From positions 46,004,001 to 46,068,000 of the forward strand of contig OX597827.1 in NCBI GenBank assembly GCA_951406725.2: a stretch of 64,000 nucleotides of DNA, written 5' to 3'. Below, one piece after another: positions 20,917-61,874 of the stretch. The stretch is from Octopus vulgaris (lineage: Eukaryota). Both the position numbers and the translations under genes were made by a program. Position 1 is the stretch's first letter; the number at the start of each line of letters is the position of its first letter. The notes under the pieces were generated by a model. The model was not told the origin of the DNA and made no database searches. It worked only from the letters and a program-made list of their open reading frames with translations.

Positions 20917-20962
<46 letters not shown>

Positions 20963-20975
20963 ATTATATAGAAGG

Positions 20976-21026
20976 AGCTTCTACAGGACTAGTACTGTTT
21001 CATTCAAGAGAAATCTTCAGGAAGCT
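20976..21026 (-). ncRNA. Type I hammerhead ribozyme (mirror copy)
   Basis: Exact reverse complement of 22394-22444. Confidence 0.8.
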
Positions 21027-21410
21027 ATTTAACAAGAATTGTATTAGCATTTATACATTTAGGCAGGTTTAAAGGAGTGGTGGTGGGGGACTTTTTGGGG
21101 GTAGGCATAGCGCAAAATATCATACTTGGGGGAGTGGTCAAGGAGTCAGTGGTAAGTTAGATGAAAGAATAGATAAATAAAAAAATAAAAATAAAAAAAT
21201 AAAAAAATAAAAAATAAAATAAAAAAAATAAAAAAATAAAAAAATAAAAAAATTAAAATATATAAAAAAATAAAAAAATAAAAAATATATATAAAAAATA
21301 TATATATAAAAAATATATATATAAAAAAAGGGGGATAGAGTTATAGGTAAATAAGGAGATTCTCACTTATACCTATACACACATGTATACGTATCTACAC
21401 ACACATATAT

Positions 21411-21455
<45 letters not shown>

Positions 21456-22393
21456 CACACATACATACATATCTACATACACACATACATACACCCGCCC
21501 ACATATACAAATTTATACACATGCACATGCATATACCTGTGTACACATACACACACGTATATATGCATACACTCACTCCCATGCATGCACGCATACACAC
21601 ATGTATATATATACCCACGACCACACATACATATATACACATATATGTACATATGTATATATGTACATATGTACATATGTACATATGTACATATGTGTAT
21701 GTGGGTGTATGTATATATAGGTGTAAAAATATGTGTATATAGGGAACTAGGTGTGTTGTGTGTGCATGAGTGTATGTGCGTATGAATATATATTTTTCTG
21801 TGTATATATGTATGTGTGGTCGTGGGTATATATATACATGTGTGTATGCGTGCATGCATGGGAGTGAGTGTATGCATATATACGTGTGTGTATGTGTACA
21901 CAGGTATATGCATGTGCATGTGTATAAATTTGTATATGTGGGCGGGTGTATGTATGTGTGTATGTAGATATGTATGTATGTGTGTGTGTGTGTGTGTGTA
22001 TATGCATATATATATATATATATATGTGTATATGTGTATATATGTGTGTGTAGATACGTATACATGTGTGTATAGGTATAAGTGAGAATCTCCTTATTTA
22101 CCTATAACTCTATCCCCCCTTTTTTTATATATATATTTTTTATATATATATTTTTTATATAAATTTTTTATTTTTTTATTTTTTTATATTTTTTTATTTT
22201 TTTATTTTTTTATTTTATTTTTTTATTTTATTATTTTTTTATTTATCTATTCTTTCATCTAACTTACCACTGACTCCTTGACCACTCCCCCAAGTATGAT
22301 ATTTTGCGCTATGCCTACCCCCAAAAAAGTCCCCCACCACCACTCCTTTAAACCTGCCTAAATGTATAAATGCTAATACAATTCTTGTTAAAT

Positions 22394-22444
22394 AGCTTCC
22401 TGAAGATTTCTCTTGAATGAAACAGTACTAGTCCTGTAGAAGCT
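22394..22444 (+). ncRNA. Type I hammerhead ribozyme, canonical core
   Basis: agcttc-CUGAAGA(22400-22406)-t ttc tctt gaa t-GAAA(22419-22422)-cag tactagtc ctg-UA-gaagct; predicted cleavage GUA after 22438. Confidence 0.8.
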
Positions 22445-22527
22445 CCTTCTATATAATAAATTAATTTTACTCTGCTATGTATTGAGTACCTTACTTACTG
22501 TGGTTAACCCCGAATCAACCCGGGACC

Positions 22528-22577
<50 letters not shown>

Positions 22578-24654: not shown

Positions 24655-25225
24655 CATCATCATCATTAAAATATCCGTTTTCCATGCTGGCATGGGTTGG
24701 CTGGTTTGACTGCTGTCTGGAGAGCCAGTGGCTACACCAGGCTCCAATCTGATCTGGCAATGTTTCTACAGCCCTTCCTAACGCCAGCCACTCCGAGAGT
24801 GTAGTGGGTGCTTTTTACATTCCACCGACACAAGAGCCAGTCAGGGGGTACTGGCATCGGCCACATTCGGAGGGTGCTTTTTACATGCCACTGGCATGGG
24901 GGTCAGTCAGAAGGTACTGGCATCGGCCACGTTCGGAGGGTGTTTTTTACATGCCACTGGCATGGGGGCCAGCCATGAGGTCCTGGAATCGATTGCAGTC
25001 GGATAGTGCTTTTTACATGTCACCGGTATGGGAGCCAGTGAGTGGGTACTGGCATCAACCACGTTTGGCTGGTACTCTTTACATGCCACCGGCACGGGGA
25101 CCAGTCAGGCATTCCTGGCATCACTCACATTCGGATAGTGCTTTTTACGTCCCACCAGCATGGGAGCCAGTCAGGGGTTACTGGTATTGGCCACATTTGG
25201 ATGGTGCTTTTTATGTGCCACCGGC
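24655..25225 (-). mobile_element. Family C copy with expanded 66-bp minisatellite (24808-25224, about 6 units)
   Basis: gtgctttttac unit starts at 24808, 24874, 24940, 25006, 25072, 25138, 25204. Confidence 0.85.
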
Positions 25226-25357
25226 AATATACATATATATTATACATATATATATATATATATATATATTTGAAATTTACAGAAAAACAAAAAAACAAAG
25301 ACAGGTGTATAAACAACAAGCAGGTGCATTAGTTTGACACTCGAGAAGGTGAGAAAG

Positions 25358-40339: not shown

Positions 40340-40675
40340 ATCATCATCATTTAACGTCCACTTTCCATGCTAGCATGGGTTGGACGATTTCACTGAGGAC
40401 TGGTGAACCAGATGGCTGTACCAGGCTCCAATCTTGATCTGGCAGAGTTTCTACAGCTGGATGTTCTTCCTAATGCCAACCACTCTGAGAGTGTAGTGGG
40501 TACTTTTACATGCCACCGGCACGAGGGCCAGTCTGGCGGTACTGGCAACGGCCACACTCAAATGGTGTTTTTTACATGCCACCTGCACAGGAGTCAGTCC
40601 AGCGGCACCGGCAATGACCTCACTCGAATGTTTTGTTCACATGTCACCAGCACAAGTGCCAGAAAGGCGACGCTG
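40340..40675 (-). mobile_element. SINE-like family C copy
   Basis: (CAT)n end, ttaacgtccactttccatgctagc, internal repeats. Confidence 0.8.
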
Positions 40676-50306: not shown

Positions 50307-50955
50307 AGGAAGTCTCAAATACAGAATAGCTGTAAAAACAGCTTAGAAGATGAGGTAAATAGCCTTAGAAAATGGTAAAAAGTGGTTGCAGGAAGTCACT
50401 ACAGGGAATCGAACCCTGTACCTAAGTTGCTTAGCTCAATGGATTAGAGTGCTCAGTAGAAATTTGAAAGGTATGAGGTTCAATTCTCTGTAGTAACCTA
50501 TTGGCAACTTTTTGCTGTTTTCTGAGACTATTTACCTCATCTTCTCAGCTCTTTTCACAGCAATTCTGCACTTGAAACTTCCTTTATTTTCTGGTATATA
50601 AGCACATACTGTTTACATAAATATATGTTTATATAAATATAAGTTGTTGTTGTTCATGGTATCTCACTATACAGCATAGCATGGGCAAACTGCCTTCTCC
50701 TGTAACTCTGAGTTAAGCAATATCCTGTGAGTGGAATTTAGTGGATAGAAATTGTGAGAGCATATTGCGTATGTGTGTGAGTGTGGTTGTGTGTGTGAGT
50801 GTGGTTGTGTGTGTGTGTTTATATCCATCTTATGTTTACTGGTCTGTCAGGTCATGTTCTCCTATGTCATAGCGTGACTTGGTGATTCAGTGAATTTAGA
50901 TTGCTAAAATAAGTGTTAGACTGAAACAAGTACTTCATAAGTATCATGTGTTATG
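50307..50955. repeat. Inverted duplicate of 61255-61864
   Basis: Long collinear reverse-complement match covering MITE, unique and old-SINE sequence. Confidence 0.9.
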
Positions 50956-51922: not shown

Positions 51923-52280
51923 AATATATATTTATATATTTTATCAATTTCTCATTTCATTAAAATTTTCTTTCAATTGAGCATTCTGCATTTTTACAAT
52001 TTTTCATTGCTTATCATTTCTCCACGTGCGGTCAACACAACCCCACCATTTATTGATCTATATATATATATATATATAGCAATAATAATTCTCTAAAAGA
52101 GATATAGACAGTAACTGCTCGATAACATAAGGGACTAAAGCCATCTGAATATGGCTAGGGACAGGGCAGGGTGGTGGGGGTGTTACTGTTGCATTTAGCC
52201 CCAGGCGAACATCGATGTCACCAGAAAGGCCCGACACCGTCACGGTGTCCTTAACCTGCAAAGGGAGGTAATTCCCCGAT

Positions 52281-52354
52281 GAAGCGGAAACCACACACGG
52301 ACCATGGTTTCAAGGTGTATTGCCTATCGTCGGCGTGTGGTAGGCTTCCGCTTC
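52281..52354 (-). ncRNA. Type I hammerhead ribozyme (U4C core variant), copy 1
   Basis: Reverse complement of 52899-52972; predicted cleavage GUC between 52300 and 52299. Confidence 0.8.
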
Positions 52355-52640
52355 CTCGACGAATTCTCACTCTGCAGGATATTCATATATAGATTTTCAA
52401 GCAAAATACATTTGCTGATTTCGAAAATCTGTTCGAAAGCAATAATAATTCTCTAAAAGAGATATAGACAGTAACTGCTCGATAACATAAGGGACTAAAG
52501 CCATCTGAATATGGCTAGGGACAGGGCAGGGTGGTGGGGGTGTTACTGTTGCATTTAGCCCCAGGCGAACATCGACGTCACCAGAAAGGCCCGACACCGT
52601 CACGGTGTCCTTAACCTGCAAAGGGAGGTAATTCCCCGAT

Positions 52641-52714
52641 GAAGCGGAAACCACACACGGACCATGGTTTCAAGGTGTATTGCCTATCGTCGGCGTGTGG
52701 TAGGCTTCCGCTTC
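52641..52714 (-). ncRNA. Type I hammerhead ribozyme, copy 2
   Basis: Identical to copy 1, 360 bp downstream; cleavage between 52660 and 52659. Confidence 0.8.
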
Positions 52715-52898
52715 CTCGACGAATTCTCACTCTGCAGGATATTCATATATAGATTTTCAAGCAAAATACATTTAGCAGTTACTGTCTATATCTCTTTTAG
52801 AGAATTATTATTGCTTTCGAACAGATTTTCGAAATCAGCAAATGTATTTTGCTTGAAAATCTATATATGAATATCCTGCAGAGTGAGAATTCGTCGAG

Positions 52899-52972
52899 GA
52901 AGCGGAAGCCTACCACACGCCGACGATAGGCAATACACCTTGAAACCATGGTCCGTGTGTGGTTTCCGCTTC
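52899..52972 (+). ncRNA. Type I hammerhead ribozyme, copy 3
   Basis: gaagcggaagcc-tac-cacacg-CCGACGA(52920-52926)-t agg caataca cct t-GAAA(52942-52945)-ccatgg-UC-cgtgtg-t-ggtttccgcttc; cleavage after 52953. Confidence 0.8.
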
Positions 52973-53120
52973 ATCGGGGAATTACCTCCCTTTGCAGGTT
53001 AAGGACACCGTGACGGTGTCGGGCCTTTCTGGTGACGTCGATGTTCGCCTGGGGCTAAATGCAACAGTAACACCCCCACCACCCTGCCCTGTCCCTAGCC
53101 ATATTCAGATGGCTTTAGTC

Positions 53121-53165
<45 letters not shown>

Positions 53166-60484: not shown

Positions 60485-61577
60485 GAACACAGAAATAACC
60501 AGGGAGAGAAAATAAAAAAGGTTTTGTGGCTAGCAATCTATCATATATATATATATATCATCATCATCATCATCGTTTAACGTCAGTTATATATATATAT
60601 GTGCATGCTGGTTTCTTTTGAGTTTTCATCTACCAAATCCACTCACAAAGCTGTGTTTAGCTCAGAGTCATGTAGTAAAACTGAAGAACTGAATCAGAAA
60701 CAATATGATAGAAAGGCAAACTCTTTTCAACCACACAGTTATAAATAAGTTTCAATTGACTGATCTTCTTACAATTATCTCCCTTGTTTGTTGACTTTTT
60801 AGATTTTACACACTTCTGGTGAGAGGTTTTGTTTAGTAATTGCTATGAGATCGAAATGGCTGATGTTTTCCTTGAACGGTAGAGACAAGAAGAGAGCTCA
60901 AATGAAAACTTTGGTGTTTTGGAGAGAAAAGAATGGGAAGGAGGAAGAAGTATTCTGTCTGGTGCCTGAGGAGACAAGCAATCTGGGTAACGAGAGGAGG
61001 AGAGATATGTTAGTTGGATGAGTCAGAGTGAAGATGAAGCATAAGACAACATGACTGTTGATCAGAGGTTTGTGAGTGCTAATAAACAACCCTATATTAA
61101 TAAGTGTTAATGAACAACCCTATAGTAATAAGTCAGGTATTCTATATAGTGTAGGTATTGTGGAGCTATGCATCTTTTTTTTTTTACATTATTTTGTGAT
61201 TGCAGTCATCGAAATGGTCATGCTGGAGCACTACTTTCAAGGCTCTCAGTCAATCATAACACATGATACTTATGAAGTACTTGTTTCAGTCTAACATTTA
61301 TTTTAGCAATCTAAATTCACTGAATCATCAAGTCACGCTGTGACATAGGAGAACATGACCTGACACACCAGTGAGCATAAGATGGATATAAACACACATA
61401 CACAATATGCTCTCACAATTTCTATCCACTAAATTCCACTCGCAGGATATTGCTTAACTCAAGAGTTACAGGAGAAGGCAGTTTGCCCATGCTATGCTGT
61501 ATAGTGAGATACCATGAACAACAACAACTTATATTTATATAAACATATTTTTATGTAAACAGTATGTGCTTATATAC

Positions 61578-61874
61578 CAGAAAATAAAGGAAGTTTCAAG
61601 TGCAGAATAGCTGTGGAAAGAACTTAGAAGAAGAGGTAAACACTCCCAAAAAACAGCAAACAGTTGCCAGTAAGTTACTACAGAGAATTGAACCCCATAC
61701 CTTTTAAATTCCTGCTGAGCACTCTAATCCATTAAACTAAGTAACTGAGGTACAGGGTTCGATTCCCTGTAGTAACTTCCTGCATCCACTTTTTACTATC
61801 TTCTAAGGCTATTTACCTGATCTTTTAAGCTGTTTTTACAGCTATTCTGTATTTAAGACTTCCTTTATTTTCTG
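61578..61874. mobile_element. Palindromic MITE-like element with tRNA-like core (61674-61745, minus)
   Basis: Ends cagaaaataaaggaagt / acttcctttattttctg; arms over 100 bp; core has A-box- and B-box-like motifs and a gttact/agtaac acceptor-like stem. Confidence 0.65.

Follow-up and report, generated by a model that had tools for sequence, protein, structure and literature searches.

Two head-to-head arms of a tandem 360-nt unit, which carries a hammerhead-type motif, lie between (TA)n tracts on contig OX597827.1 of Octopus vulgaris, within the 64,000-nucleotide stretch analysed here (the window). One arm appears circularly permuted with respect to the other, which raises the question of what template and what kind of priming could have produced the pair. 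The initial annotation saw in it the footprint of a circular or multimeric RNA, copied by reverse transcription primed from each strand of a cut TA tract.

Unit positions are numbered from c1 = 52080, which places the left outer end at c359 and the right outer end at c48 (Table 1). The geometry first described was borne out: the inverted arm, 353 of 360 nt, runs through the tandem junction and is an inverted copy of 52127-52479, with one mismatch against unit 1 and none against unit 2 where they overlap. A single base differs among the three unit copies at the locus. The RNA-sense 3' ends of both arms point outward, each adjoining a TA tract as claimed, and these flanks mask the target duplication of the insertion at 52078-53126. 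A 403-nt inverted pair (50307-50709 and 61462-61864, 93% complementary, 10.7 kb apart) flanks the insertion on both sides, and a dispersed repeat family contains arrays of a 66-nt tandem unit at positions 6-273, 24807-25226 and 40504-40662 of the window.

Table 1. Features of the insertion and of a second family in the window (positions are those of the window; strand is that of the RNA sense).
Feature	Position	Strand	Remarks
Second, ORF-bearing PLE family, head-to-head truncated ends	20956..22530		Left arm halts at inner site; right arm ~66 nt longer
Left (TA)n target tract	52059..52078		Last A common to tract and arm end
Arm A	52078..52773	-	Length 696 nt (1.93 unit turns), running from c359 to c334; fixed site A forms its outer end
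44-nt "tail" (c359-c42) between sites A and B	52078..52121	-	At outer end of arm A only; boundary +/- ~2 nt owing to TA tract
Type I hammerhead-type motif, copy 1	52291..52340	-	Variant core, palindromic stem III; predicted cut 52300/52299
Hammerhead-type motif, copy 2	52651..52700	-	360 nt beyond copy 1; predicted cut 52660/52659
Head-to-head joint of arms A and B	52773..52774		c334 to c40, blunt, 0 shared bases
Arm B	52774..53126	+	353 nt, 0.98 turn, c40 round to c48; without tail
Hammerhead-type motif, copy 3	52913..52962	+	Stem I formed by 52913-52919 and 52954-52962; core made up of 52920-52926 plus 52942-52945; cleavage predicted after 52953 (c221)
Right (TA)n target tract	53124..53161		Adjoins outer end of arm B

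The 360-nt repeat is a dispersed, tandem, non-coding element with hundreds of young copies. Its longest ATG ORF is 50 aa, which makes the unit protein-free, and its GC content is 47%. Exact-pattern counts in the genome gave 754 TA junctions at c359 and 535 at c43, and internal passes numbered 1281; the reversed controls gave 0. The hammerhead-type motif at the locus was identified by eye from the letters; the locus has its core, stems I-III and the palindromic form of stem III, all of which motif scans show to be conserved in other copies, and the motif departs from the usual form by a C at position 4 and a short stem II lacking the usual G-C pair. An Rfam search of the window returned no hammerhead at the gathering score and, at E up to 10, just hairpin-like chance matches. 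The 66-nt stretch around the motif folds with a z of -3.1, in a minimum-energy structure that differs from the active hammerhead fold, and strong self-pairing is predicted for the cut-to-cut monomer RNA (z -5.6). Assembled RNA contigs of 391 and 390 nt (from 4 of 24 runs) each span one unit, which fits a circle and a tandem equally. Further hammerhead-motif families with an identical palindromic stem III were seen at L260-L289; many of them end in TA tracts at fixed distances, some head-to-head.

If the endpoints of all copies are mapped onto the unit, scattered permutations and frequent head-to-head pairs should be found according to the initial annotation. We surveyed 157 stretches of the genome containing copies of the family, a non-random set made up of the 40 best whole-unit hits, all C1 sites of the first exact-pattern listings, 19 of 30 further C1 sites and 43 stretches around the C2/C3 sites listed. 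Head-to-head pairs were indeed frequent: 123 were found, together with 39 single-arm pieces (several of which carry a short second arm under the search threshold) and no tail-to-tail pair. The expected scatter was confined to the inner ends. As to the outer ends of uncut pairs (n = 244), 240 lie at or just inside two sites 44 nt apart on the unit: 120 at c359-c17 (98 exactly at c359; site A) and 120 at c42-c57 (107 exactly at c43; site B), leaving 4 elsewhere. The hammerhead cut was considered as a location of the ends and rejected.

The two sites are, moreover, used in pairs. One A end and one B end are present in 117 of the 123 pairs; none is A+A, one is B+B-like with a trimmed end, four have one atypical end, and the remaining pair, cut at the edge of its stretch, proved to be A+B on longer sequence. 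In the C1 subset 60 of 61 pairs are A+B, and among the 100 ends listed per kind no A+A or B+B pair was found within 10 kb. The rule persists in subfamilies up to 13% diverged. A few loci showed particular arrangements. Adjacent to each other at L150:2716-3561 are two almost identical head-to-head pairs whose palindromic joints are the same, likely a local duplication that was probably counted twice. At L077, L115 and L163 the insertions consist of three pieces, one arm jumping to another unit position ahead of the inversion, and at C1:40686018-40686089 (L195) one TA tract is common to an A end of the 360-nt family and an end of a second family.

The apparent permutation stems from initiation inside the unit, at two fixed points separated by 44 nt, combined with random 5' truncation, and because it arises in this way it does not by itself speak for a circle. 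The real finding is a set of fixed, paired and asymmetric start sites rather than free permutation. The outer end of arm B (c48) is site B (c43) shortened by about 5 nt, its offset from site A being the one that is fixed in the family, and the insertion at 52078-53126 is an ordinary family member with an A end and a trimmed B end. The arm ends had been described as unrelated both to the cleavage site and to each other; the former part stands, as neither end lies at the cut, but the latter does not, c359 and the trimmed c43 being family-wide fixed sites.

Family insertions are flanked by (TA)n or AT-rich targets, and at 6 non-TA sites 12-13 nt repeats were found, about 8 nt of each lying outside the element. 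In TA tracts, perfect inverted repeats are both fragile and difficult to assemble, a point in favour of an assembly artefact or of locus-specific DNA repair, the latter named at the outset as one of the findings that would refute the initial reading. That 117 pairs spread over many contigs have these two ends in common, in subfamilies diverged by as much as 13%, and that target duplications are present, argues against both; fixed ends at independent loci refute them, and the chance that either applies is negligible. Alternatively, both arms could start at A, the tail being stripped from one of them by the endonuclease while it resolves an intermediate, as in the tail origin discussed in PMC8557442. 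One tail per insertion would then be obtained without an asymmetric dimer. We consider this improbable, because in vitro RT starts have been mapped at both tail boundaries (PMC11167929) and B and A are about equally frequent as ends of single-arm pieces (19 vs 17).

How the second arm came about was examined in the 113 unsplit A+B pairs. Arm B fits inside arm A in 51 of them and A inside B in 24, and in 38 neither is contained in the other, so that neither arm is a plain copy of its partner. Joints could be scored in 68 of the 113 pairs: 17 are blunt, 28 have 1-8 shared bases and 23 have extra bases. These data bear on a course in which priming occurs once and the first arm is then copied as DNA by fold-back or self-priming, as was proposed, with an antisense template, for rotifer PLEs (PMC3846280). 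In 9 of 113 pairs both inner ends lie at one position, several at a hairpin, giving the palindromic joints for which self-priming was proposed in that paper; arm lengths are also correlated, and haplotypes are common to both arms. The 38 pairs without containment do not fit such copying, nor do the 24 in which just A fits inside B (although later central deletions could mimic part of these), and it offers no reason for a stop at site B. With the blunt c334-to-c40 joint at 52773/52774 also against it, we find little likelihood in this alternative.

Although probably primed separately, the arms do not stop independently. Their stops are coupled (Spearman 0.66 in 86 loci picked without regard to length), short pairs end within 10 nt of each other in 18 of 36 cases vs 6.3 by permutation, and at L256 the arms measure 2948 and 2936 nt. 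This coupling suggests one complex, though joining at palindromes contributes. Arm A stops behind arm B in 16 pairs and ahead of it in 6 (p 0.052), but B has a head start, and this asymmetry was discounted as evidence of a trailing enzyme. In LINE-1 twin priming, the second target strand likewise primes a second cDNA, which leads to an inversion; the upstream position at which the second primer lands varies, and the resulting arms have no overlap. In the 360-nt family, by contrast, both starting points are fixed, at a distance of 44 nt, and one and the same sequence is present in both arms. The two-sided priming at a cut TA target that was first proposed for the locus is well supported by the 123 head-to-head and 0 tail-to-tail pairs, the short duplications at non-TA sites and the behaviour of a PLE in vitro (PMC11167929), and we hold two-sided priming at two sites to be highly probable.

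The insertion had also been likened to a fold-back 21 kb into the window, at 20956-22530. The likeness holds for the geometry but not for descent, since the family found there is unrelated to the 360-nt unit. This second family is very young, with at least 2388 exact ends; it has a hammerhead motif of its own near 22400-22445, and its tail measures about 66-70 nt. At L170 one of its ends continues into a PLE-like ORF. On C1:1-49.7 Mb it has 60 ends at the outer site and 44 at the inner site, from which 33 head-to-head pairs result, and every one of the 33 is mixed. Two possible same-end pairs were seen, L209 (A+A-like, with flanks that appear inverted-duplicated too) and a candidate at C1:69.18 Mb. 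A third PLE family (L240-L249) has a 727-aa open frame, a hammerhead motif and a 71-nt tail related to that of the second family. Among its 10 loci examined, 4 had one end resolved and all 6 two-ended ones had one end of each kind.

Searches of Pfam and PDB with the PLE ORFs gave no useful hit; their look-alikes in the Atlas carry GIY-YIG, RVT_1 and HTH_animal. The PLE label of these ORFs leans on these look-alikes and on motifs in the ORFs. No similarity was found between the 360-nt unit and the ends of both ORF-bearing PLE families (alignment scores fell below those of shuffles), nor between the unit and 30 of 148 matches to a degenerate hammerhead pattern, and in the surveyed loci no PLE ORF was continuous with an arm of the 360-nt family. 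With no RT plus GIY-YIG ORF in the unit, the element is not an autonomous PLE.

Endonuclease-bearing PLEs (Craig et al. 2021, PMC8557442; Arkhipova et al. 2013, PMC3846280) nevertheless share with the 360-nt family an inverted head-to-head arm, a tail at one end, (TA)n targets and 5' truncation. Their target duplications measure 8-10 bp, close to the approximately 8 nt found here, and their tail is 30-40 bp long vs 44 nt. Unlike PLEs, the 360-nt family has no ORF, and both its arms are multi-turn arrays of a small unit. The PLE tail is described as "often at one end" or optional and the inversion is ascribed to self-priming or endonuclease resolution, with no count per insertion in the available text of either paper. 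In vitro, the PLE PAc (Poseidon, Anolis carolinensis) cuts and extends both target strands, and two internal RT starts bound its tail (Frangieh et al. 2024, PMC11167929). Start sites 3' of the hammerhead, AT-rich targets and a predicted dimer are further likenesses to the present family. The PAc assay was performed in bulk on linear RNA; strand differences in start site and per-event pairing of strands are absent from its available text, and the main text draws no link to the inverted arm (PMC11167929).

What remained to be assessed was the template, which the initial annotation took to be circular or multimeric. Permutation having lost its value as evidence for a circle, the passages across the hammerhead site were considered. 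The site is crossed by 150 of 226 arms (97 of 172 in a less biased subset), inner ends fall there in 6 of 269 passages, no excess over elsewhere, and indels at c216-226 number 0 in about 260 passages. Since the cut site shows neither scar nor excess of stops, cut linear monomers are not the plain template, and to this extent the proposal stood. Such monomers could still be joined by end-to-end template jumps, which would give a single-unit bottleneck and permit mosaic arms such as the one at L033 described below. Jumps of this type, as in R2, usually add or lose bases, and the lack of indels and of a stop excess over about 260 passages makes this course very improbable. First-turn stops cluster at c150-205 (49 of 150 stops vs 10 of 76 beyond the first turn; p 0.0014 by Fisher's test, for a region picked post hoc), where a long stem is predicted. 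This stem would require RNA 3' of site A, matching internal initiation.

Variation among turns and arms was then compared. Divergence has a median of 0.28% between arms within a locus vs 2.5% between loci (108 loci). The 50 well-covered loci comprise 30 haplotypes and 271 variants fixed across both arms and at least 2 turns; just 5 of these 271 are private to a locus, so most of the sharing reflects the same subfamily and not the same molecule. Of 118 turn-specific variants, 2 reappear in register in the other arm. One in-register shared variant was seen at L146 (c217), and at L256 a hairpin variant (c165-170) is present in the same turn of both arms and in another turn. Rare alleles were found 141 times in one arm vs 24 times in both. 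Up to 14.7 turns were seen in one arm, and the 23 turns at L169 carry 3 unshared substitutions. The uniformity of haplotypes over turns and arms is moderate evidence for regeneration from a single unit, as by a circle. Most unshared variants may simply have arisen after insertion, and inverted arms could be homogenised by gene conversion. Seven private alleles were fixed in both arms of young loci, 3 of editing type and 2 of the reverse, giving no support at this number for RNA edits fixed in DNA.

The same priming, on two strands and at two sites, could instead have used a linear multimer as template: a long transcript of a tandem array that was left uncleaved, between copies of which the enzyme may or may not have switched. 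An 11-turn arm at L033:1493-5383 is mosaic at 5 sites, its turns switching among several haplotypes, and one circle therefore cannot yield it; a multimer template or template switching is possible there. This arm and the in-register variant at L146 speak for a linear multimer, with which the scarless cut site fits equally well; the variant hammerhead may be slow, and the anole PLE used mainly uncleaved RNA in vitro (PMC11167929). On such a template, however, turn-specific variants should recur in register more often than the 2 times in 118 observed, arms made of 8 to 15 nearly identical turns demand an equally long and uniform parent, and the 30 haplotypes uniform across turns need a single-unit bottleneck. 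Copying from multimers only would, in addition, just shorten arrays. We regard a linear multimer as unlikely, though as a competitor to be taken seriously, and a circular template, given two-sided priming at two sites, as probable.

Taking these parts together, we lean with some reserve towards the whole reading, namely that a PLE enzyme nicked both strands of the TA tract and extended each 3' end on RNA, probably one circle, from sites A and B. The points that weigh against this reading include the mosaic arm at L033, the non-canonical core and stem II of the hammerhead together with its Rfam result and predicted fold, the 39 single-arm pieces, and the lack of a match to the PLE families compared. 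Transcripts of tandem arrays would self-cleave and close into 360-nt circles, as in other animal retrozymes. A PLE protein, likely a dimer, would bind close to the A-B segment (178 and 222 nt 3' of the predicted cut in the hammerhead), and staggered nicks would supply two primers. Each subunit would start at one site, several turns being possible by strand displacement. The two cDNA 3' ends would then be joined, using hardly any microhomology or none, and each would be copied from the other, so that a separate second-strand step would be unneeded. At 52078-53126, where about 1.9 turns and about 1 turn had been estimated for the two arms, arm A would have run 1.93 turns and arm B 0.98. A more specific form of this mechanism, which we put forward tentatively and would not expect to hold in full, is that an asymmetric PLE dimer grips one RNA at two sites and its two RTs run from both cut strands at once; on a circle made by a ribozyme this would amount to double rolling-circle insertion.

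The architecture of the unit invites comparison with the animal non-LTR retrozymes, for which circles have been shown in mussel, coral and axolotl (Cervera and de la Pena 2020, PMC7229834), and for which circle-templated tandem cDNA and mobilisation by PLEs have already been proposed (PMC7229834; Li, Clavereau and Pollet 2026, bioRxiv 10.64898/2026.07.22.740005). The comparison draws also on PMC4209133 and PMC2377424. According to these sources, animal retrozymes are likewise non-coding tandem units, of 170-400 nt (350-390 bp in mussel), with strongly self-paired RNA and PLEs in the same genome; each of their units carries one type I hammerhead motif, of which the variant motif in the 360-nt unit is the putative counterpart. 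Their target duplications exceed 4 bp, with which the value of about 8 nt at the 6 non-TA sites of the 360-nt family agrees. They are described as head-to-tail arrays, and the word "inverted" is absent from the available text of PMC7229834, whereas the 360-nt family consists mostly of two inverted arms with fixed, different ends. In Xenopus, 24 of 57 families have matches, 21 of 22 being to PLEs (bioRxiv 10.64898/2026.07.22.740005), whereas for the 360-nt unit no homology was found to the ends of the two ORF-bearing PLE families compared. By its architecture the 360-nt element thus appears to be an animal retrozyme with ends of PLE type. Each ingredient of the present account is already known, but the pairing of start sites per event and its reading are apparently new: in the open literature searched, no paper was found on inverted two-site ends of a retrozyme or on an A+B count per insertion.

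The inverted ends and one-sided tail of PLEs, and the way in which retrozymes return to DNA, are open questions in this field (PMC8557442, PMC11167929, PMC7229834, bioRxiv 10.64898/2026.07.22.740005). The 360-nt family supplies hundreds of young insertion events on a 360-nt template with which to approach them. The A+B rule in the three families (117 of 123, 33 of 33 and 6 of 6 pairs), together with the coupled stops, predicts an asymmetric complex of two enzymes. The structure of the ends also links a retrozyme to the PLE machinery by mechanism, where earlier support came from co-occurrence and sequence kinship. If the proposed double insertion on one RNA is true, a single mechanism would explain the inverted arm of PLEs, their one-sided tail and the arrays of retrozymes.
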